A stretch of 64,000 nucleotides of DNA from an uncultured Tenacibaculum sp. (GTDB lineage: Bacteria > Bacteroidota > Bacteroidia > Flavobacteriales > Flavobacteriaceae): NCBI GenBank assembly GCA_947497895.1, contig CANMIL010000014.1, forward strand, positions 27,308-91,307. The letters are read 5' to 3'. Numbering within the stretch: position 1 is the stretch's first letter; the number at the start of each line of letters is the position of its first letter. Shown here in pieces: positions 9,104 through 54,727 of this stretch. The notes under the pieces are model-generated. The model saw only the letters and a list, made by a program, of their open reading frames with translations. It was not told the DNA's origin and did not search any database. A program made the position numbers and the translations under genes.

Positions 9104-10132
9104 TTATCGATTTATTCCTCGTTGACTTATCCATTTTTGATATTTCGCTGCGTTTCTGTTGTGTTGAGCTAAAGAATTTGCAAACTCGTGAAAACCAATC
9201 TTTTCTACACTGGCACACATATAATAATAGTTATGTTTCTTGTAATTTAAGACAGCATCAATTGCAGAAATATCAGGCATTGATATTAGAGTAGGAGGTA
9301 ACCCCGTATTTTTATATGTGTTGTAAGGTGAATCAATAGTGAGATCTTTATTCAATACTCTTTTTACAACAAAGTCTTGTCCGTTAATTTGTTTGAGACA
9401 GTATATGATAGTTGGGTCCGCTTGCAACGGCCAGTTGCTTTTTAAGCGATTTAAATAAAGTCCAGCAACAATTGGACGCTCACTTTTTTGAGCAGTTTCT
9501 TTCTGAACAATTGAAGCCAAAGCAAGAACCTCTGATTTGGATAAATTCAGTTTTTTAGCTTTCCCTATTCTTTTTTCATTCCAAAAACGCTTGTACTCCT
9601 TTAGCATTCTATTTCTGAACCCTTCAGCGGAAGTATTCCAATATACTTCATAGCTATTTGGAATATACATGCCAAGTGCAGATCTTTCATTAAAACCATT
9701 AGATTCTAAAAAGGCTTCGTCGGTCATCACTTTAAATAGTGCTATCGAATCAGCTTCTATTTGTTTAGATACTCTACCAGCAAGTTTTTCAAGTGTATCT
9801 TGATTGTTAAATGAAAGTTTAATTGGTGTTTGTTTTCCACTTCTTAAAAGGTTGATAAGATCATTTAAGCTCATACCTGCTTTTAATTCATAACGCCCTC
9901 CTTTTGGATTGACATAATTTTTCTTTTTAGCAATCCATTCGAAATTGGAAGAATTATCAATGAATTGGGCAAGCTTGGTTTTTACATCAGTCAAATCATC
10001 TGTCGATTTAATAAGTAGAATACCGTTTTTAGTAACTGCGTTTCCAAAAATTTTGTTGTAAAAGCTAAACCCGACAATTACAGCTGTTGTAAAAATAACA
10101 GCTGTAATTCCTAAAAATATTTTTTTATTCAT
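9104..10132 (-). CDS. mltG: Endolytic murein transglycosylase MltG (YceG family)
   Basis: 342 aa with one N-terminal TM helix, an ASIVQKE motif and LYLNRL...LQADPT, all characteristic of YceG/MltG. Confidence 0.9.
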   Translation of the reverse strand: MNKKIFLGITAVIFTTAVIVGFSFYNKIFGNAVTKNGILLIKSTDDLTDVKTKLAQFIDNSSNFEWIAKKKNYVNPKGGRYELKAGMSLNDLINLLRSGKQTPIKLSFNNQDTLEKLAGRVSKQIEADSIALFKVMTDEAFLESNGFNERSALGMYIPNSYEVYWNTSAEGFRNRMLKEYKRFWNEKRIGKAKKLNLSKSEVLALASIVQKETAQKSERPIVAGLYLNRLKSNWPLQADPTIIYCLKQINGQDFVVKRVLNKDLTIDSPYNTYKNTGLPPTLISMPDISAIDAVLNYKKHNYYYMCASVEKIGFHEFANSLAQHNRNAAKYQKWISQRGINR

Positions 10133-46595: not shown

Positions 46596-46628
46596 AAAAA
46601 AAGAGAAGTTTTAACTTCTCTTTTTTTA
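46596..46628. terminator. Bidirectional terminator between convergent genes
   Basis: A7-GAGAAG...CTTCTC-T8, at the boundary of ltaE (plus strand) and the membrane-partner gene (minus strand). Confidence 0.65.
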
Positions 46629-47279
46629 TGTTGCCTCTTCTAGTTTGACGAGTTCTTTATAATTGTTATTTAGTTTATTCAATAATCTACCGTAGATAAG
46701 TTTATAGAAGCCCCAAAGTAACAAGAACATGATTAGTATTGCGATAGAAAAACTTATCATTAAAGAGGTAACAAAAGCATCTTTGTTTAAAGGAACTTCG
46801 ATACCATGCGTATTATAATATTCTAACAATAAATCTACATCATTAAAAAGTAGGGATATGAAAATTATATTAATTGTAATGGCAAATATTAGATTAAAAT
46901 ATACGTAATACTTAACAACTTTTCTAGTGCTCAGTATTTTTTGTATTAGTGTTTTAGTATTGTCGGAAATTGAAATTGATTTATAGTTTTTGTAAAACAA
47001 AATTAAAAAGACAGTAATAACAATATAATGAAGATAAACACTTGAGTAAACAAAAGTTTCAACATGAAGAGTTTCATATAATTCAATATATGAACTTCCT
47101 ACAAAAGAAAGATTTAATCCCGCCCAAAATAACAATTCTAAAATACCAATTATAAAAATCCATTTTACAATTGAAGAAGATTTCGAGCGTGACATTTTAT
47201 AAATATCTGCTTTCGAAACTTTATTAGTCTCTTCAGGTTGCTTATCCCAAGCTTTTTTATATTTATCTAATGCATCCAT
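46626..47279 (-). CDS. Sigma-factor-associated membrane protein (putative anti-sigma), copy 1
   Basis: 217 aa. It starts 7 nt downstream of the ECF sigma gene stop. It has a charged N-terminal segment of about 35 aa and then at least four TM helices. No zinc-finger anti-sigma motif is present. The role is inferred from position. Confidence 0.5.
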   Translation of the reverse strand: MDALDKYKKAWDKQPEETNKVSKADIYKMSRSKSSSIVKWIFIIGILELLFWAGLNLSFVGSSYIELYETLHVETFVYSSVYLHYIVITVFLILFYKNYKSISISDNTKTLIQKILSTRKVVKYYVYFNLIFAITINIIFISLLFNDVDLLLEYYNTHGIEVPLNKDAFVTSLMISFSIAILIMFLLLWGFYKLIYGRLLNKLNNNYKELVKLEEAT

Positions 47280-47837
47280 AGATTTCTTACGGGGTCAATA
47301 TTTTTTTTAATTTATCTTTAGCTCTGTTCATTTTCACTCTAGCATTTACTTCACTAATTCCTAATGTACTAGAAATTTCCTTATAAGGTTTGTCTTCTAA
47401 ATACAAAAAGATAAGAGCTTTATCAATATCATTTAACTTATGAATAGCTTTATATAATTGTTTTAACTGTTGTTCTTCAGTATCGTCATAATCATGAGAT
47501 TGTATTTTAAATGCAATCTCACTAATGTCTTGAGTTTTTACAGCTCTGGTTGATTTTCTATATAAAGAAATGGCTGTATTTAAAGCTACTCTATACATCC
47601 ATGTGCTAAACTTAGCATCACCTCTGAACTTGCTGTAATTTTTCCATAGCTGTATTGTTATTTCTTGAAACAAATCATTGTGAGCGTCAGCGTTTGTAGT
47701 GTAAATTCTACAAACTTTGTGCACAATATTTTGATTGTTTTCAAAATCAGCTAAAAATTTATTTTCAAGTTCCTTCTGCACTAAGTTCGGTTAAGTTTTG
47801 ATGTTTATAGGTAGTCCAAAAATATAAAACGTTACAT
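47135..47837. repeat. Tandem direct duplication, unit 1 (sigma gene, its leader, and the 5' end of the partner gene)
   Basis: Collinear without indels with 48508-49210 at an offset of 1373 bp. In the 495-nt sigma CDS I counted 26 substitutions by manual alignment. Confidence 0.85.
47287..47781 (-). CDS. ECF-subfamily RNA polymerase sigma-70 factor, copy 1
   Basis: 164 aa with a GTG start. Region 2 is DLFQEITIQLWKNYSKFRGDAKFSTWMYRVALNTAISLYR. The region 4 HTH is YKEISSTLGISEVNARVKMNRAK. Confidence 0.9.
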   Translation of the reverse strand: MQKELENKFLADFENNQNIVHKVCRIYTTNADAHNDLFQEITIQLWKNYSKFRGDAKFSTWMYRVALNTAISLYRKSTRAVKTQDISEIAFKIQSHDYDDTEEQQLKQLYKAIHKLNDIDKALIFLYLEDKPYKEISSTLGISEVNARVKMNRAKDKLKKILTP

Positions 47838-48046
47838 CATAACAATGTGTTTTTTTATTTTTTTTGACCATAGCTGTGCGCTATACTTTGATTTAAACAT
47901 CTTTCCGTAAAATAGAAAGACATTTAAAATCTTAATAAAAGTAAATAAGAGATTTTACATAATCTAAAGCCATTCGAATAGTAGAGGGCTTTCTATAAAA
48001 TAGTGAAATAGATTTATTATAAATTTTAGTTATAAAATAACACTAC

Positions 48047-48652
48047 TTATTTTTCTAATTGTTTTAAGTTTCTATAGTTTTTATTAAGCTTTTTTAAGAG
48101 AATTCCATAAAGTAATTGATATATCAACCAAATAATACCAATTAAAAGTGTACAAACAATTATCGAAATAATTATAAAAAACACCAGTTTTGTACCTTCG
48201 AATTCTGGGTGAGATTGTACTGTGGAAATAATAGCAACAAGAAATAATACACAGGCATAACCGAGGTTGGTTAGAATATAGTATTTAACGGTTTTTCTGG
48301 TTTTTAGTATTTTACTCATTAACTCTGATGTCGAGTCGGTAGTTTTAATATTCTTATAATTTTTGTAGAAAAAGAATATAAAAATTAAAAGTATGGGATA
48401 CATGATTATTTGAGAATACATCACAAAGTTTTCCATACCAAATTCTTTGTAACTTTTATAAAGTTGGTCGAAATCCCAAAAAAAGAAAGCACTGAAAGGC
48501 AAGAAAAATTCTAAAATACCAATTATAAAAATCCACTTTACAATTGAAGAAGATTTCGAACGTGACATTTTATAAATATCTTCTTTAGAAACTTTATTCA
48601 CCTCTTCAGGTTGCTTATCCCAAGCTTTTTTATATTTATCTAATCCATCCAT
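48047..48652 (-). CDS. Sigma-factor-associated membrane protein (putative anti-sigma), copy 2
   Basis: 201 aa. The first 49 aa differ from copy 1 at only 3 positions. The rest is much more diverged but still homologous (YKNYK, VKYY and LLxKLNxNY motifs retained). Confidence 0.5.
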   Translation of the reverse strand: MDGLDKYKKAWDKQPEEVNKVSKEDIYKMSRSKSSSIVKWIFIIGILEFFLPFSAFFFWDFDQLYKSYKEFGMENFVMYSQIIMYPILLIFIFFFYKNYKNIKTTDSTSELMSKILKTRKTVKYYILTNLGYACVLFLVAIISTVQSHPEFEGTKLVFFIIISIIVCTLLIGIIWLIYQLLYGILLKKLNKNYRNLKQLEK

Positions 48653-49210
48653 AGATTTCTTACGGGGTCAATATTTTTTTTAATTTATCTTTAGCTCTGT
48701 TCATTTTTACTCTAGCATTTACTTCACTAATTCCTAGAGTACTTGAAATTTCCTTATAGGGTTTATCTTCCAAATACAAAAAGATAAGAGCTTTATCAAT
48801 GTCGTTTAACTTATGAATAGCTTTATACAATTGTTTTAACTGTTGTTCTTCAGTATCATCATAATCGTGAGATTGTATTTTAAAAGCAATCGCACTAATA
48901 TCTTGAGTTTTTACGGCTCTGGTTGATTTTCTATATAATGAAATAGCCGTATTTAAAGCCACTCTATACATCCATGTACTAAACTTAGCATCACCTCTAA
49001 ACTTGCTGTAATTTTTCCATAACTGTATTGTTATTTCTTGAAACAAGTCATTGTGAGCGTCGGCGTTTGTAGTGTAAATTCTACAAACTTTGTGCACAAT
49101 ATTTTGATTGTTTTCAAAATCAGCCAAAAATTTATTTTCAAGTTCCTTCTGCACTAAGTTCGGTTAAGTTTCGATGTTTATAGGTAGTTCAAAAAGGGAA
49201 AACGTTACAC
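48508..49210. repeat. Tandem direct duplication, unit 2
   Basis: See unit 1 (47135-47837). Confidence 0.85.
48660..49154 (-). CDS. ECF-subfamily RNA polymerase sigma-70 factor, copy 2
   Basis: 164 aa with a GTG start. It is identical to copy 1 except one residue (DISAIAF versus DISEIAF). Confidence 0.9.
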   Translation of the reverse strand: MQKELENKFLADFENNQNIVHKVCRIYTTNADAHNDLFQEITIQLWKNYSKFRGDAKFSTWMYRVALNTAISLYRKSTRAVKTQDISAIAFKIQSHDYDDTEEQQLKQLYKAIHKLNDIDKALIFLYLEDKPYKEISSTLGISEVNARVKMNRAKDKLKKILTP

Positions 49211-49244: not shown

Positions 49245-49277
49245 ATTACAATTCAGCTTTAAAAAATTACAGTTCGG
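49245..49277 (+). promoter_or_regulatory. Candidate LytTR-type operator: two direct repeats with 21-bp periodicity
   Basis: ATTACAATTCAG (49245-56) and ATTACAGTTCGG (49266-77). The 9-mers ACAATTCAG and ACAGTTCGG are separated by a 12-bp spacer. The second matches [TA][AC][CA]GTTN[AG][TG] perfectly and the first has one mismatch. They lie about 70-100 nt upstream of the DUF2141 ATG. A near-consensus -7 box GATATTTG is at 49311-18. Confidence 0.5.
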
Positions 49278-49348
49278 TATCATTTAGTTTAGAAATAAAT
49301 GTTCTGTTCTGATATTTGCCCTGTAATTAATCTTAAATACTATTAAAA

Positions 49349-49762
49349 ATGAAATTTATATTAAACATAACATTGATTTTAAACATGTTAGTTGTTAAAG
49401 TAGCATCTGCTCAAAATCATTCAGTAGAAATTACAGTGGTAAATGCAACAAGTGATAAAGGAACTGTGAATTTCGCATTGTACAATGAAGCAAACTATAT
49501 GAAGAAACCTGTTCAAGGGAAGGTATCAAAAATTGTTAAGGGTATAAGTACTGTTGTTTTTGAAAATGTTTCTCCAGGAGAATATGCTGTGATTTGTTTC
49601 CATGATAAGAATAGTAATGAAAAAATGGATTTTGAATCTAATGGAATGCCTCTAGAAGATTACGGAGCAACAAATAATGTGATGAACTTTGGACCTCCAA
49701 GATATGATGATGCCAAATTTGAAGTGGCTGATAAAAATGTATCTTTAGAAATTAGATTTTAA
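49349..49762 (+). CDS. DUF2141-family secreted protein
   Basis: 137 aa with a signal peptide (VASAQ). VNATSDKGTVNFALYNE...PGEYAVICFHDKNSNEKMDFESNGMPLEDYG is typical of DUF2141. Confidence 0.75.
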   Translation: MKFILNITLILNMLVVKVASAQNHSVEITVVNATSDKGTVNFALYNEANYMKKPVQGKVSKIVKGISTVVFENVSPGEYAVICFHDKNSNEKMDFESNGMPLEDYGATNNVMNFGPPRYDDAKFEVADKNVSLEIRF

Positions 49763-49770
49763 TATATAAT

Positions 49771-51129
49771 ATGGAAGTTAAGAATACTACTTGGAAAGAG
49801 CGTTTAAAAAGTGATTTATGGGTTTGTTTAAAAATGACACTACTGTTTGCAGTTGTTTTTATAGTAATAAATCAAGAGTTTTCTATCAAAGGAATGGGAA
49901 TTGTGTTTTTATTTTCAGGAATGTATTCTTTCATATTAGGAATGGGTAATGGGATTATAAATGATTATTTGTCGCTTCAATGGAGCTGGGTAACGGAAAC
50001 AAATAAGCGAGTAACAGCGGGTATCATAGCTACAATAATTTATACAATAATAGCAGTATTATTTATTCATTACGTCATTTATATACTAATATTCGAGAAC
50101 AGCATTGAAGGGTTTTTTAAAGGGAAATTTATGTGGATTCATTTATTCGCTATTAATATTTCTCTGGGAGTGGCATCTTTTCTACATGCAAGAGGTTTTA
50201 TGAAAGAATGGAAAAAGGAAGCAACAAAAGAAACCACACAACAACAGATTGTAGCGAAAACGGAAACAGCAAAATTTGAAACATTAAAAAATCAAATTGA
50301 TCCCCATTTTCTATTCAATAGTTTAAATGTGTTAACATCATTAATAGGAGAGAATCCTTATCAGGCAGAAAAGTTTACAACGAAGCTTTCAAAGGTTTAT
50401 CGATATGTATTAGAACAACGAAGTAAAGAATTGGTTCCAATTCAAGAAGAATTAAAGTTTGCAAGAACATATATGGAATTATTGCAAATGCGATTTGAAG
50501 ATGCTGTAAAGTTTGATATTCCAACAGAGATAAGCAATGCTGATTTAAAGATAGTACCACTATCATTGCAGTTACTCTTAGAAAATGCAGTAAAGCATAA
50601 TGTAGTTTCCTCGAGGAAGCCCTTAGAAGTAAGAATTTATGAAGAAGATGGTTTTTTACAAATAAGTAATAATATAAATCCAAAAGAAGCTATAGGAAAA
50701 AGTACAAAGGTTGGTTTAAGAAATATAGCCGATCGATATGGTTTAATTACCGATAAAAACGTAAAGATTAGTAATAATAATAAAACATTCACAGTGAGTT
50801 TACCACTGTTAAAAAAGACTGAGAATATGGAAATAAATACCGAAAGTTTAGGAAGCAGTAAATATGTGAAGGCTGTTGAAAGAGTAGAAAAGTTGAAAGA
50901 GTTTTATCAGAACCTTGTATCGTATTGTTTAGTAATTCCATTTTTAATTTTCATAAACTTTAGATTTTCTCCACAGTTCCAATGGTTTTGGTTTCCAATG
51001 CTAGGTTGGGGGATAGGATTATTATTTCACTATTTAGAGGTTAATAACTATAGTTTGTTCCTTGGGAAAAACTGGGAAGAAAGAAAGATTAAGGAGCTGA
51101 TGGATGAAGAAAAAAAGCGTAAGCTTTAA
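49771..51129 (+). CDS. LytS/YehU-type sensor histidine kinase with a fused C-terminal 2TM domain
   Basis: 452 aa. Four N-terminal TM helices, the H-box QIDPHFLFNSLN, the N-box LLENAVKHN, then KYVKAVERVEKLKEFY + 2 TM + LGKNWEERKIKELM. That last module is the same one encoded by the five downstream mini-genes. Confidence 0.85.
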   Translation: MEVKNTTWKERLKSDLWVCLKMTLLFAVVFIVINQEFSIKGMGIVFLFSGMYSFILGMGNGIINDYLSLQWSWVTETNKRVTAGIIATIIYTIIAVLFIHYVIYILIFENSIEGFFKGKFMWIHLFAINISLGVASFLHARGFMKEWKKEATKETTQQQIVAKTETAKFETLKNQIDPHFLFNSLNVLTSLIGENPYQAEKFTTKLSKVYRYVLEQRSKELVPIQEELKFARTYMELLQMRFEDAVKFDIPTEISNADLKIVPLSLQLLLENAVKHNVVSSRKPLEVRIYEEDGFLQISNNINPKEAIGKSTKVGLRNIADRYGLITDKNVKISNNNKTFTVSLPLLKKTENMEINTESLGSSKYVKAVERVEKLKEFYQNLVSYCLVIPFLIFINFRFSPQFQWFWFPMLGWGIGLLFHYLEVNNYSLFLGKNWEERKIKELMDEEKKRKL

Positions 51130-51242
51130 TCGCAGAGTGCTAGTCGAGAGGGAAATTTTCCAAGGCTTGTCTCGAAATATAAAATTATAAATCCAATAGA
51201 TATCCTAGATGCTTACATCAGGGTAGGTTATTTGAAATTATC

Positions 51243-51527
51243 ATGAGAAATACAGAAATAGAAGAATATAAATACTTAAAAGCTAAGAAAAGAGTAGAAA
51301 AGATAAAAGGGTTTTACATACACGCTATCGTAACCGTAATTCTTATTCCAATTTTGACTTTTATCAATTTAAAGTTTGTTCCTCAATACCATTGGTTTTG
51401 GTACCCAATGCTAGGTATGCTATTAGGACTTTTCTTTCACTGGTTTGGTGTATTTGGTACAGAAAAATTTGGATTAGGTAAAGATTGGGAGCAAAGAAAA
51501 ATTAAAGAATATTTAGACGAAAATTAA
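51243..51527 (+). CDS. 2TM-domain mini-protein 1 (short-loop class)
   Basis: 94 aa: YKYLKAKKRVEKIKGFYIH, TM1, QYHWFWYPMLG, TM2 FFHWFGVFG, LGKDWEQRKIKEYL. Confidence 0.8.
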   Translation: MRNTEIEEYKYLKAKKRVEKIKGFYIHAIVTVILIPILTFINLKFVPQYHWFWYPMLGMLLGLFFHWFGVFGTEKFGLGKDWEQRKIKEYLDEN

Positions 51528-51533
51528 GACATT

Positions 51534-51821
51534 ATGGAAAGTAAATATATAAACGAAAAGAAATATTTAGATGCTAAAAAAAGAATTAAACAGATAAAGG
51601 CATTTTATGTGCATGTTGTTGTAAACATTGTTTCTCTAGCAATTATTATTTCTGTAAACCTAATATTTTCTCCTCACTATCATTGGTTTTGGTTTGCAGT
51701 AATAGGAATTGTATTGGCTACTTTCTTTCATTGGCTTGGGGTTTTTGGAGCGGATATAATAGGTTTAGGTAAAGCTTGGGAAGAGCGTAAGATTAAAGAA
51801 TATTTAGAAAAAAATAAGTAA
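51534..51821 (+). CDS. 2TM-domain mini-protein 2 (short-loop class)
   Basis: 95 aa: KKYLDAKKRIKQIKAFYVH ... HYHWFWFAVIG ... FFHWLGVFG ... LGKAWEERKIKEYL. Confidence 0.8.
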   Translation: MESKYINEKKYLDAKKRIKQIKAFYVHVVVNIVSLAIIISVNLIFSPHYHWFWFAVIGIVLATFFHWLGVFGADIIGLGKAWEERKIKEYLEKNK

Positions 51822-51823
51822 TC

Positions 51824-52135
51824 ATGGAAAAAGACTATTCAAAAGAACATAAGTACCTCTTAGCAAAGAAGAGGGTGGAAAAGATAAAAGGTTTTTATTG
51901 GCATGCTGTTTCGTATGTATTGGTGAATATTTTTATTTCAGCAGTAATAATCATTGGGATTACCTCAGATGGAGCTTCATTTAAGGAAGCTATTAATAAT
52001 TTCGGCGTTTATTCAACTTGGATATTTTGGGGAATAGGATTATTCTTTCATTGGTTAAGCGTTTTCGGTTCGAATTTCATTTTCAATAAAAATTGGGAGG
52101 AAAGAAAGATAAAAGAATTCATGAATGATAATTAA
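51824..52135 (+). CDS. 2TM-domain mini-protein 3 (long-loop class)
   Basis: 103 aa: HKYLLAKKRVEKIKGFYWH ... loop TSDGASFKEAINNFGVYSTW ... FFHWLSVFG ... NKNWEERKIKEFM. Confidence 0.8.
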   Translation: MEKDYSKEHKYLLAKKRVEKIKGFYWHAVSYVLVNIFISAVIIIGITSDGASFKEAINNFGVYSTWIFWGIGLFFHWLSVFGSNFIFNKNWEERKIKEFMNDN

Positions 52136-52142
52136 TGGTAGT

Positions 52143-52457
52143 ATGGAGATAGATAATAAAGAAGAACAAGAAAAATATTTAAGAGCCAAAGGAAGGGTTG
52201 ATGAAATAAAAAAATACTATACTCATTTAGTAGTATATATTGTAGTGAATACTTTTATAAGTATTAATAAGATAATGAGAAATATGAGTAATGGTGAAAC
52301 ATTCTCAGAGGCGTTTTTCGACTTTAATACTTTTGCTGTATGGGTGTTTTGGGGAATTGGTATCGCCTTTCATACGTTTAAAGTATTTGGATTTAACCTG
52401 ATATTAGGGAAAAATTGGGAGGAGCGTAAAATTAAGAAATACATGGACGAACAGTAA
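52143..52457 (+). CDS. 2TM-domain mini-protein 4 (long-loop class)
   Basis: 104 aa from ATG 52143. The track start 52125 would overlap the previous gene by 11 nt, and the paralog alignment favours 52143. EKYLRAKGRVDEIKKYYTH ... FHTFKVFG ... LGKNWEERKIKKYM. Confidence 0.78.
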   Translation: MEIDNKEEQEKYLRAKGRVDEIKKYYTHLVVYIVVNTFISINKIMRNMSNGETFSEAFFDFNTFAVWVFWGIGIAFHTFKVFGFNLILGKNWEERKIKKYMDEQ

Positions 52458-52463
52458 CTGGTT

Positions 52464-52781
52464 ATGGTTATAGATAAAATAAAAATTAGGGCTCAAGAAC
52501 GTGTAAAAGAATTGAAGGAATTCTATAAGCATTTGTTCGTGTATATCATCATAAACATTGTTTTCACATTTCTTTCAAACTATTTTAATATTGTTCTTAA
52601 AATTTATGGTGATCTCGAGATTAGTAATAAATTTACCGAAAATGGTTTTGAACATTATTCTTTATGGGGAATATGGGGTGTTTTTTTATTTATAGATGCT
52701 TTTAGAGTGTTTGGAATCAGTAAATTTTTAGGTAAGGACTGGGAGGAAAGAAAAATTAAAGAGTTAATTAACAAAGAATAA
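52464..52781 (+). CDS. 2TM-domain mini-protein 5 (long-loop class, most divergent)
   Basis: 105 aa: IRAQERVKELKEFYKH ... FIDAFRVFG ... LGKDWEERKIKELI. Confidence 0.78.
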   Translation: MVIDKIKIRAQERVKELKEFYKHLFVYIIINIVFTFLSNYFNIVLKIYGDLEISNKFTENGFEHYSLWGIWGVFLFIDAFRVFGISKFLGKDWEERKIKELINKE

Positions 52782-52796
52782 ATAGATAATTCAATA

Positions 52797-53552
52797 ATGA
52801 ATATTGTAGTTATAGAAGACGAAAAACCCGCAGCAAGAAGACTTCAACGTATGTTGGCGCAATTGGATTTGGAGGTCACAAAAATGTTGCACTCAGTGGA
52901 AGAATCTATAAATTGGTTCCAACAAAATACGCATCCAGATTTAATTTTTCTTGATATTCAGCTTTCTGATGGTTTATCTTTTGAAATTTTTGAAGAGGTT
53001 GTCGTGAAGTCTGCTATTATTTTCACAACAGCTTATGATGAATATGCCTTAAAAGCTTTTAAACTTAATTCTATTGATTATTTATTAAAGCCAATTGATG
53101 ATGACGAATTAAAAATTGCTGTAGATAAGTTTAAAGAACAGAATAATAAACAAACCGATATACAGGTAAATATTGATGATATCAGAAAACTATTAATTAA
53201 TCCTATTGATAGAAAATACAAGAAGAGATTTACCATTAAAGTTGGACAGCACATTAAAATTATTCATTCAGATGAAATAGAGTGTTTTTACTCTGAAAAT
53301 AAGGCTACTTATATTCATACTAGTAGTAATAGAAACTATTTAATTGATAATTCTTTAGAACACTGGAATGAACAACTAAATCCAGAACAATTCTATAGAG
53401 TAAATAGAACATATATTGTTCATATAAACTCTATAAAAGATATTATATCCTACACAAATTCTCGTTTGCAATTAAAGCTTCATAATTATAATGAAGCGGA
53501 AATTATTGTAAGCAGGGAGCGTGTTAAAGACTTTAAAAATTGGATTGAGTAA
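52797..53552 (+). CDS. LytTR-family two-component response regulator
   Basis: 251 aa. The receiver domain has IVVIEDE, the phospho-acceptor LIFLDIQLSDG and YLLKP. The C-terminal LytTR domain has FYRVNRTYIVHINSI. Confidence 0.92.
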   Translation: MNIVVIEDEKPAARRLQRMLAQLDLEVTKMLHSVEESINWFQQNTHPDLIFLDIQLSDGLSFEIFEEVVVKSAIIFTTAYDEYALKAFKLNSIDYLLKPIDDDELKIAVDKFKEQNNKQTDIQVNIDDIRKLLINPIDRKYKKRFTIKVGQHIKIIHSDEIECFYSENKATYIHTSSNRNYLIDNSLEHWNEQLNPEQFYRVNRTYIVHINSIKDIISYTNSRLQLKLHNYNEAEIIVSRERVKDFKNWIE

Positions 53553-53554
53553 AA

Positions 53555-54727
53555 TTAAAGTTTAAATAGATCATTGAATCTTACATAAACACCGTAAGAA
53601 TAGTCGAAATTATTCTTTTTACTCTCTTGGGTAACTAAAGTTTCAATGGATTCGTTGAGCTGGTAAAAACCTTCCAATTGAACTCCGATTCGAATATTTT
53701 TAGCTAACGATTTTTCGTAAAAAGCTTTAGTAAATATCAATTCCCTAATTGGTTCTTGAAGATCAACATATCTATTGTCTAACTCTCCATTCCAATAATT
53801 GTTATTTACTTTACGCGAATACGAGTTAAACATGTCATTACCCAATGCTGTAACGAACTTATTACTTTTAAAATAAGAAAGCATAAAGTTAAAACTCTTA
53901 TGTATATATCTTAGTTTAAAATAATTTGCATTTCCATTCGAGAAAGGATGCTCGGTTAATGGTGCATTCGTGGTATGTAAAAGGAAATGATAACTAGTGA
54001 TAAGCTGGTTTTCAGGATTTAGAATGAACTTGTATTCTAAACCAACTGATAAATTATGAATGTCATAAATATCGATAATGTCTAGTTCATCTCTAACCTT
54101 CTTGTTTATTTGACCACCTTTATGTCTGGTGATAAATTGAATAGGAAAGGTTAAGTTTTTGGTAGCAAAAATATTGGAAGAAAGTCCTAGTGTAAATACT
54201 TCCTTGAAGTCATCATTTGGACGAATATAGTTTTCCCAATTTAACCAAGTATCTAATGAGAACTTCGATGATTTGTATTTGTATTGTAAACCCGTTTCAA
54301 CAACGTCATTTCTTAATATCTTTTCACTTGCTAGAATTGGTTCAATAACACCATGATTATTTCCTGCGAAGAAATTACCAATAGTGAATTCATGATTACC
54401 TTTTATATACTGAAAACTAAAAGTGGGGATTACGTGCTCAACTTTGGTTTCTCCGAAATTCTTTTGTATAAAAACTCCAGCTCTAAATCGAGTATTTTCG
54501 GAATTATTGTATTGTATTTGTGGATAAATATGGCTTCCTAAAAGAGTGTAACCGTCGGCAATGAAATTGAAATATTCGTTGTTTTTAATGAAATTAAGGT
54601 TATAAACCTCTAAACTAAACTTGGATGTTTCTCTATTTTCTAATGGGGATTTTAAATAGAATACAGATTCTTGAGAATAGGTACAAATAATTAGAAATAA
54701 AAAGGTTGTAGTTAATAGTTTTTTCAT
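53555..54727 (-). CDS. Hypothetical secreted protein, possible outer-membrane beta-barrel
   Basis: 390 aa with a signal peptide (ICTYSQ). It is aromatic- and Asn-rich with alternating hydrophobicity throughout. I recognised no family. Its stop is only 2 nt from the convergent response-regulator stop. Confidence 0.4.
   Translation of the reverse strand: MKKLLTTTFLFLIICTYSQESVFYLKSPLENRETSKFSLEVYNLNFIKNNEYFNFIADGYTLLGSHIYPQIQYNNSENTRFRAGVFIQKNFGETKVEHVIPTFSFQYIKGNHEFTIGNFFAGNNHGVIEPILASEKILRNDVVETGLQYKYKSSKFSLDTWLNWENYIRPNDDFKEVFTLGLSSNIFATKNLTFPIQFITRHKGGQINKKVRDELDIIDIYDIHNLSVGLEYKFILNPENQLITSYHFLLHTTNAPLTEHPFSNGNANYFKLRYIHKSFNFMLSYFKSNKFVTALGNDMFNSYSRKVNNNYWNGELDNRYVDLQEPIRELIFTKAFYEKSLAKNIRIGVQLEGFYQLNESIETLVTQESKKNNFDYSYGVYVRFNDLFKL

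Follow-up and report, generated by a model that had tools for sequence, protein, structure and literature searches.

A LytS/LytTR-type operon of marine Flavobacteriia in which the sensor kinase and an array of small proteins carry the same two-helix membrane module

The stretch of DNA analysed here (the window) is 64 kb of contig CANMIL010000014.1 from an uncultured Tenacibaculum sp., and the subject of this report is an operon of eight co-directional open reading frames (ORFs) at 49349-53552, all on the + strand. The genes lie in the order DUF2141 / kinase-2TM / five free 2TM proteins / receiver-LytTR regulator, ie a LytS-type sensor histidine kinase ends in a two-transmembrane (2TM) hairpin, and the same module is encoded five more times as free-standing proteins (mini1 to mini5) ahead of the response regulator. 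This arrangement is widespread and well conserved among marine Flavobacteriia, to which Tenacibaculum, a genus of fish pathogens, belongs. We propose that it represents a conserved, positively autoregulated LytS-family/LytTR operon, whose sensor would be a multi-subunit membrane complex in which accessory hairpins feed back on the kinase, and we give this proposal an even chance of being correct. The design is unusual, and the mechanism suggested for it is drawn from comparative inference alone.

A preliminary description of the window had listed the eight ORFs with intergenic gaps of 8, 113, 6, 2, 7, 6 and 15 nt, and both the coordinates and the gaps were confirmed (Table 1). The 7-nt gap presupposes ATG 52143 as the start of mini4; an alternative upstream ATG at 52125 would give an overlap with mini3. 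The motifs quoted in that description, QIDPHFLFNSLN, LLENAVKHN, KYVKAVERVEKLKEFY and LGKNWEERKIKELM, are all present, and the domains it named (DUF2141, PF06580, six copies of PF13239, Response_reg and LytTR) were recovered. All Pfam assignments of the operon products exceed the gathering thresholds.

A scan of one genome per species gave 80 loci, which were annotated with hidden Markov models (HMMs) built from the window's own proteins. A kinase-2TM gene, 1-6 free 2TM domains and the regulator were found together at 71 genome loci besides the window, in Tenacibaculum, Polaribacter, Lutibacter, Kordia and their relatives. The number of free 2TM domains was one at five of these loci, two at 20, three at six, four at 23, five at 15 and six at two, and DUF2141 lay directly upstream of the kinase gene in 60 of the 71. 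A metagenome scan, for which a deliberately divergent 2TM alignment of five sequences was used, gave 37 further complete operons with 1-5 free copies. The 2TM array was invariably found directly 5' of the regulator gene. Both the linkage of 2TM genes to LytS-type kinase/LytTR pairs and the variation in copy number, raised in the preliminary description as matters for a survey, were borne out by these loci.

The closest locus is that of Tenacibaculum sp. MAR_2009_124 (L001). Measured against this relative, the ratio of non-synonymous to synonymous substitution rates (dN/dS) was 0.060 for mini1, 0.124 for mini2, 0.056 for mini3 and 0.142 for mini4, compared with 0.059 for the kinase and 0.145 for DUF2141. 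Values of 0.06-0.14 indicate that the mini-genes (mini1 to mini4) are under purifying selection, and the low dN/dS, together with the 71 genome and 37 metagenome loci, places the operon beyond a chance association. The mini5 ortholog of L001 is split by a frameshift (~9520-9870), which may mark either a pseudogene or a sequencing error; as a frameshifted copy, it would imply that the array turns over.

The DNA 5' of DUF2141 was aligned for 69 loci and displayed one sharply conserved block, with little conservation upstream of it. The block consists of tTACAaTTCAtCc, 10 variable, mostly A/T positions and tACArTTCrGTa, and is followed 31-33 nt further on by xA..TTTG. We take A..TTTG to be the -7 box of Bacteroidota (TAnnTTTG); a sigma-70 scan is uninformative for this phylum. 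A position weight matrix (PWM) covering the 34-nt box found a single match in the 64-kb window, with a score of 45.2. The box stands ahead of the operon in every lineage; it was present at the operon's own promoter in 66 of the 80 genome loci and in 35 of the 35 metagenome operons with enough upstream sequence, which were loci outside the training set, while shuffled sequences gave 0 in both cases. ComE boxes are made up of two 9-bp imperfect direct repeats with a 12-mer linker (PMC4005675), a geometry equal to the 21-nt period observed in the window, and the box is presumed to be the binding site of the operon's own regulator. Because a conserved LytTR-type box heads the operon and its geometry matches that of ComE boxes, the operon is very probably activated by its own regulator, and it appears to form one transcription unit with a single promoter carrying a LytTR-type double repeat.

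The same box was found in front of further genes in the relatives. In Kordia jejudonensis (L073) DUF2141 is located 4 kb away on the opposite strand and has a box of its own, and the first gene of the operon there encodes a secreted protein of 208 aa that matches TPR weakly. This TPR-like protein lies directly before the kinase at 29 metagenome and six genome loci, sometimes with DUF2141 ahead of it. At 15 metagenome loci and at L044 a second box, 3-4 kb 5' of the kinase, is followed by an outer-membrane protein of ~720 aa (CarboxypepD_reg + Plug), which is TonB-dependent-receptor-like; L079 has a homolog of this protein upstream, and the sequence of that locus ends before the box region. A fuller cluster, with the boxed ~720-aa protein, then a secreted TPR-like protein (~207 aa) and directly after it the kinase, was observed at L044 (3832-6902), L091, L107, L113, L122, L125, L128, L129, L132, L136, L142, L150 and L154. 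Both a second box and a homolog of the ~720-aa protein are missing from the window, which represents a reduced, 'DUF2141-only' form. From these positions we infer that the regulon comprises exported and outer-membrane proteins together with the signalling genes themselves. The output, which the preliminary description had left as unknown, is thereby narrowed: the operon is its own target as judged by the box, and in relatives the boxed genes include those for TonB-dependent-receptor-like and exported proteins.

At three metagenome loci a box is located 60-80 nt 5' of the first free 2TM gene (L092 6396-6429, L103 1701-1734 and L145 6296-6329), which suggests that in some lineages the free hairpins and the regulator have a regulator-dependent promoter of their own at the junction between the kinase and the first 2TM gene. 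A second PF06580-kinase/LytTR pair, lacking the 2TM module, was seen just downstream at some Polaribacter and Tenacibaculum loci (L028 10728-12779, L035, L036 and L046). Weaker box-like sites occur at L028, after the second kinase/LytTR pair (score ~25), and at L035 (10474-10507, score 24).

The six modules of the window score 60.9-96.4 bits against PF13239, for which the gathering score is 24.8 bits, and their alignment has 12 invariant columns, in agreement with the earlier view that a single module is present six times, once tethered and five times free. In the mini-proteins Pfam detected 2TM alone, besides weak sub-threshold DUFs. The free copies are 36-48% identical to the kinase-borne copy, and the modules are 33-53% identical to one another within the window, which makes them old paralogs, about as diverged as are orthologs across genera. 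In both the alignment and the AlphaFold2 (AF2) model two transmembrane (TM) helices lie between conserved cytoplasmic segments. The parts of the free copies that are most conserved are the cytoplasmic N-helix (Y..AK.RV..IK.FY.H), one face of the second helix, TM2 (WGIG..FH..VFG), and the tail (GK.WEERKIKE); conservation is lowest in TM1 and the loop.

The modules fall into two loop classes, a short one (the tethered copy, mini1 and mini2) and a long one (mini3 to mini5). Statistics on these classes refer to the genome set only, as the broader HMM altered the domain envelopes in the metagenome loci. The tethered copy is always of the short-loop class, with an envelope of 90-95 aa, and is the more conserved, with a mean identity of 66% compared to 41% for the free copies (77 loci). 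A short-loop tethered copy is accompanied by at least one long-loop free copy in 72 of 72 complete genome operons, the window's included, and in the operons with a single free copy it is the long-loop class that is retained (6/6).

The variability of TM1 and the periplasmic loop beside common cytoplasmic flanks could also mean that the hairpins are parallel co-sensors, each free copy being an independent receptor for its own membrane or periplasmic cue, relayed via the shared cytoplasmic motifs, so that copy number would equal the number of signals integrated. The age of the paralogs, given their 33-53% identity, and the maintenance of loop-length classes across genera would fit such a role, and the helix-turn-helix (HTH)-2TM one-component proteins described below suggest that a hairpin can itself be an input domain. 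We nevertheless consider it unlikely: loops of ~8-20 residues offer scant surface for specific ligands, and copy number shifts freely among close relatives, the frameshifted copy of L001 being one instance. It also overlaps the accessory-subunit proposal in needing contact with the kinase.

The kinase contains PF06580 (His_kinase) at aa 167-245 (9.3e-26) and PF13239 at aa 367-445. The motifs DPHFLFNSLN, which includes the H-box PHFLFN, and LLENAVKHN, the N-box, are readable in the sequence, and the core matches PDB 6swj, 'Histidine kinase' (2.7e-16). A Pfam search at E <= 0.01 found neither the LytS 5TM domain nor a GAF domain. A monomer model was generated with AF2 from a 38-sequence alignment, with a mean predicted local distance difference test score (pLDDT) of 70.9. 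The four N-terminal TM helices of the preliminary description were modelled at 8-34, 39-70, 77-107 and 119-151 with a pLDDT of 80-93, and the AF2 helix boundaries leave loops of only ~4-11 residues between them. Such an N-terminal domain, four TM helices joined by very short loops, identifies the kinase as intramembrane-sensing. Its C-terminal part was modelled as a disordered linker (351-362) followed by helices at 364-398, 407-424 and 435-451, and through this hairpin the kinase is anchored in the membrane a second time. The hairpin must have an N-in/C-in topology, because it comes after the cytoplasmic ATPase domain. Orthologs of the kinase are ~70% identical across genera and all have PF06580 and PF13239; the best match was that of T. 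xiamenense, with 95% identity. Candidate kinases lacking the N-terminal TM domain, in which the hairpin would be the sole anchor, were dropped, P0276 being a truncation at a contig edge and P0350 retaining one N-terminal TM helix.

A kinase that is unusual in being membrane-anchored at both ends might require help with its biogenesis, and the free hairpins could aid its insertion, stability or clustering while carrying no signal. There is a precedent in SaeQ, which protects a SaeS variant against degradation (PMC5083920). However, 1-6 diverged paralogs under purifying selection exceed the needs of a chaperone, and in three lineages a regulator-dependent box stands right before the free copies; we regard a purely stabilising role as very unlikely. 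If the hairpins did no more than stabilise, the system would be an ordinary two-component operon with accessory genes.

The 2TM family at large was surveyed by a profile search of 1.84 billion representative proteins, which gave 1,707 clusters at E <= 0.001. The best 149 of these comprised 117 single hairpins, 21 tandem 2TM-2TM proteins, seven kinases with one hairpin and four with two. Fusions of 2TM to LytTR or to a receiver domain were absent from the best 149 clusters, and in ten long or N-terminally extended 2TM proteins Pfam identified PF06580 as the sole partner. Natural fusions, ie 2TM-2TM proteins of ~190-220 aa and kinases with two C-terminal hairpins, were noted at L002, L015, L016, L025, L028 and L048 and in P0241-P0256, P0259, P0298 and P0375. 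In Alphaproteobacteria, 119 of the 120 best matches joined an XRE-type HTH to 2TM (PF01381 + PF13239). This family of ~156-aa proteins (L095 5689-6267; P0396-P0514) occurs in Pyruvatibacter, Hoeflea, Nitratireductor and Phaeobacter; its members look like membrane-tethered one-component regulators, and their gene neighbourhoods revealed no conservation and no recurrent partner. Orphan 2TM proteins with an acidic C-terminal extension and a shared end motif, W/Y-D-x-x-D-L/F-V, were seen at L081 (5597-6366), L083 (5989-6384) and L084 (2096-2479), where their genes have no linkage to a kinase or LytTR gene. In both the kinase and the HTH fusions the hairpin is always C-terminal to the cytoplasmic signalling domain. 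Repeated fusion to signalling domains or to itself marks the hairpin as a module for membrane input, anchoring or oligomerisation rather than as an effector.

That distinction bears on one of the two roles suggested in the preliminary description, namely that the mini-proteins are the effector output of the two-component system, acting as holin-like, permeabilising or toxin-immunity proteins. They are small, with two TM helices, a predicted N-in/C-in topology and a charged C-tail, and their place within an autoregulated transcript would see them induced when the system fires. A length of 94-105 aa, two TM helices and the tail KNWEERKIKE do give them a loose resemblance to holins, one that many proteins other than holins share. 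On the other side, PHROGs gave no holin match for the hairpin, 2.9 million viral contigs (IMG/VR) contained no 2TM relative, and PADLOC gave no match. The window operon includes no gene for lysis, and no lysin or toxin gene was seen in the 108 further operons, which were annotated for operon components only, with no dedicated lysin search. It would be hard to see why an effector should be fused to a kinase or to an XRE HTH, and constraint is strongest in the cytoplasmic flanks rather than along a pore-like surface. The analogy with holins itself loses its basis because lrgAB, the target of LytSR, is now recognised as a pyruvate uptake system (PMC6790026, PMC12632267). An effector role is in our estimation scarcely credible, and this part of the preliminary description is not upheld.

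The position of the array, always directly ahead of the regulator gene, would suit yet another arrangement, in which the cytoplasmic helices of the hairpins dock the LytTR regulator at the membrane, near the kinase or away from DNA, much like the membrane inhibitor proteins of the LytTR regulatory systems HdrRM and BrsRM. LytTR regulators under the control of membrane proteins have been described (PMC6193735), and the alphaproteobacterial hairpin is covalently joined to a DNA-binding domain. The dominant architecture, however, is the fusion to a kinase, and the regulator has a normal receiver and a cognate kinase. Orphan hairpins occur with no LytTR gene within 6 kb, and the best 149 clusters held no 2TM-LytTR or 2TM-receiver fusion. 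Docking of the regulator therefore seems to us quite improbable.

There remains the other role in the preliminary description, that the free copies associate with the kinase-borne copy, and it is this role that is now the better supported, through indirect evidence from fusion patterns. A function as accessory subunits of the sensor is suggested because the fusion partners of the hairpin are signalling domains or 2TM itself, because the cytoplasmic flanks and TM2 are its most conserved parts, and because the tethered copy is more constrained than the free copies and is paired with them by loop class. In the mechanism that we propose, the phosphorylated regulator would bind the box and raise expression of the whole operon, and the free hairpins so produced would join the kinase-tethered hairpin in a membrane assembly. 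The minimal pair would be a short-loop tethered copy and a long-loop free copy, held together by the conserved TM2 face (WGIG..FH), the cytoplasmic N-helix and the C-tail. Assembly would shift the balance between kinase and phosphatase activity, so that the induced free copies could act as a dosage-dependent layer of feedback or tuning, comparable to the action of SaeP and SaeQ on SaeS, while the variable TM1 and periplasmic loops could diversify the response of each copy. The physiological output would concern the envelope or uptake, represented by DUF2141 in the window and by the TPR-like periplasmic and TonB-dependent-receptor-like proteins in relatives.

A more elaborate form of this mechanism can be put forward, and we think it rather doubtful. 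In it, a combinatorial hetero-oligomer of tethered and free hairpins, its composition set by the regulator-driven paralogs, would decide whether the doubly anchored kinase is on or off. The assembly might also be the inner-membrane end of a trans-envelope relay, leading from the TonB-dependent-receptor-like protein through DUF2141 or the TPR-like protein to LytTR, as a counterpart of cell-surface signalling by extracytoplasmic function (ECF) sigma factors. If true, it would constitute a 'paralog-titration' feedback device of a kind not known among two-component systems.

Several observations weigh against accessory subunits feeding back on the kinase. The hairpin of the kinase was modelled with a pLDDT of only 55-70 and a predicted TM-score (pTM) of 0.39, so that a docking site cannot be placed on it. 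The pairing of loop classes was counted without correction for the phylogenetic relatedness of the genomes. Binding of the box by the regulator is deduced from the conserved footprint and its geometry, and a scan of the 64-kb window for the box revealed no target besides the operon itself. The alphaproteobacterial HTH-2TM genes have no free 2TM copies nearby. Finally, a minority of the divergent metagenome matches are orphan 2TM genes of high-GC organisms; neither a kinase nor a LytTR gene lies within 6 kb of them, and their neighbours do not recur. The module does occur without a kinase, and the fold therefore does not depend on hetero-assembly.

The regulator displays Asp53, Thr77/78 and Lys98 and is 96% identical to its ortholog in L001. 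Its scores against the NCBIfam equivalogs, 110.6 bits for LytR (cut-off 375) and 95.9 bits for BtsR (cut-off 246), are far below both cut-offs, which makes it a member of the family and not an ortholog of any characterised system. The H-box His and the N-box of the kinase, together with Asp53 of the regulator, make up a complete phosphorelay. DUF2141 has no sequence relative in the PDB; its single-sequence AF2 model had a pLDDT of 55.8, and a Foldseek search gave no match at E <= 0.001. Genes for DUF2141 proteins are co-located with the carotenoid hydroxylase gene crtG in Sphingomonadales (PMC5989583), which may hint at the handling of a hydrophobic or pigment ligand by DUF2141.

The 113-nt gap between the kinase and mini1 is present as had been described, and proves to contain a lineage-specific insertion of ~100 nt that is unique in the window; L001 has 11 nt at this point. 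The gap was considered as an internal promoter or attenuator, and this was rejected, since it is lineage-specific, its best box PWM score is -32 and the z-score of its RNA fold is -0.45.

Table 1. Features of the operon and its promoter, in window coordinates. E-values are those of the Pfam matches.
Feature	Position	Strand	Basis
LytTR-type box, two direct repeats TTACAATTCAG(C) and TTACAGTTCGG(TA), 21-nt period	49246..49279	+	promoter alignment, PWM
T-rich -33-like element	~49286-49292	+	sequence
Bacteroidota-type -7 element GATATTTG, consensus xA..TTTG	49311..49318	+	fixed spacing after the box in the alignment
DUF2141 exported protein, 137 aa, signal peptide, first gene of the operon	49349..49762	+	PF09912, 1.6e-28
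Sensor histidine kinase, 452 aa: 4-TM N-domain, PF06580 + ATPase core, C-terminal 2TM hairpin	49771..51129	+	
Kinase-tethered 2TM module, aa 367-445, short-loop class	50869..51105	+	PF13239, 1.1e-27
113-nt intergenic gap with lineage-specific ~100-nt insertion	51130..51242	+	comparison with L001
Free 2TM protein 1 (mini1), 94 aa, short-loop	51243..51527	+	PF13239, 1e-24
Free 2TM protein 2 (mini2), 95 aa, short-loop	51534..51821	+	PF13239, 1.3e-16
Free 2TM protein 3 (mini3), 103 aa, long-loop	51824..52135	+	PF13239, 5e-23
Free 2TM protein 4 (mini4), 104 aa from ATG 52143, long-loop	52143..52457	+	PF13239, 1.7e-23
Free 2TM protein 5 (mini5), 105 aa, longest loop, most divergent	52464..52781	+	PF13239, 5.9e-20
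Response regulator, 251 aa, receiver + LytTR DNA-binding domain	52797..53552	+	PF00072, 3.2e-14; PF04397, 1.6e-22

Upstream of the operon, on the - strand at 46626-49154, an ECF sigma/anti-sigma pair is tandemly duplicated with a period of 1373 nt. A single residue distinguishes the two sigma factors (164 aa each). The anti-sigma duplicates are near-identical over the first ~48 residues (three substitutions) and have diverged in their membrane parts, their identity over the full length being 45%. Oriented divergently from the operon, the pair shares a 194-nt promoter region with it. The preliminary description had joined these genes with the operon into an envelope-signalling island; they are adjacent in Tenacibaculum-type loci, and the association does not extend to Polaribacter, Lutibacter or Kordia. 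On the other side of the operon, and convergent with it, a 390-aa gene with a signal peptide lies on the - strand at 53555-54727. It matches NCBIfam LpxZ at 6e-43, with 147 bits compared to a cut-off of 460, has no Pfam match, and is a neighbour of the operon at no locus other than the window and L001.

Neither the 2TM domain nor its fusion to a kinase is new. PF13239 is already catalogued, NCBI uses the labels '2TM domain-containing protein' and 'Pr2TM family membrane protein', and the annotations of the kinase orthologs ('2TM domain-containing protein' or 'histidine kinase') already reflect the fusion. The Pfam entry carries no function and no published function for PF13239 was found, as the preliminary description had supposed; literature matches for 2TM or Pr2TM were rejected as belonging to the unrelated glycine-zipper 2TM/SlyB family or to mouse allele names. 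Nor did we find a publication on the tethered-plus-free array, on its dynamics between one and six copies or on the loop classes, or one on the conserved box with its extra targets or on the HTH-2TM branch.

To our knowledge, Bacteroidota have very many PF06580/LytTR systems, and for almost none of these has a signal or a mechanism been established. Should titration or remodelling of the tethered hairpin by the free ones prove true, feedback and diversity of input would have been built by duplicating a domain of the sensor itself, a simple solution and one accessible to genetics. A catalogued domain of unknown function would also acquire a role, which might apply as well to the membrane-tethered XRE regulators of Alphaproteobacteria. 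The box provides a handle on the system, as a reporter promoter, as a motif for regulon prediction and, through its link to the TonB-dependent-receptor-like gene, as a pointer to a function in the envelope or in uptake.

Among characterised systems, BtsS/BtsR, YpdA/YpdB and LytSR have in common with that of the window a PF06580 core with a PHFLFN H-box, a REC-LytTR regulator and two direct repeats expected 5' of the target. All three induce transport proteins: BtsSR induces btsT (PMC10653868), the LytS/LytTR-type system YpdA/YpdB induces yhjX (PMC5552118), and LytSR induces lrgAB. This parallels the boxed TonB-dependent-receptor-like gene of the relatives. They differ in that the window kinase has a 4-TM sensor lacking a LytS 5TM match or a GAF domain, and none of the three has a C-terminal hairpin or free hairpin paralogs. 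CidA and LrgA are likewise small membrane proteins under LytS/LytTR-family control; they show no homology to the mini-proteins of the window, which have no phage or lysis context. The HdrRM and BrsRM regulators operate without a kinase and have no receiver domain, in contrast to the window, where a full kinase-receiver pair is present (Asp53) and the kinase itself carries the membrane module. They resemble the window in that a LytTR regulator gene adjoins that of a small membrane protein proposed as its controller, and these Streptococcus mutans systems are presented as LytTR regulatory systems forming a class apart from phosphosignalling (PMC6193735). The window's system is a distinct branch of the LytS/LytTR family.

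Another comparison is with SaePQRS of Staphylococcus aureus, in which the lipoprotein SaeP and the membrane protein SaeQ are induced from the autoregulated P1 promoter of saePQRS and form a ternary complex with SaeS, an intramembrane-sensing kinase, that switches on its phosphatase activity (PMC5083920). The two systems are unrelated in sequence, and their signalling proteins are of different types, HisKA/OmpR in the one and PF06580/LytTR in the other. The auxiliary module of the window is a paralog of the domain fused to the kinase, in 1-6 diverged copies, and its interaction with the kinase is a proposal only. However, both operons combine an exported protein, one or more small membrane proteins, an intramembrane-type kinase and a regulator, and in both the promoter would be activated by the regulator, so that the auxiliary proteins rise with the activity of the pathway. 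In both, too, the cytoplasmic part of the kinase is the presumed point of action of the auxiliary membrane protein. A short-loop kinase encoded with exported and membrane proteins behind a putatively autoregulated promoter is what was found in the window, and by this likeness the operon would encode a two-component system with auxiliary membrane proteins.

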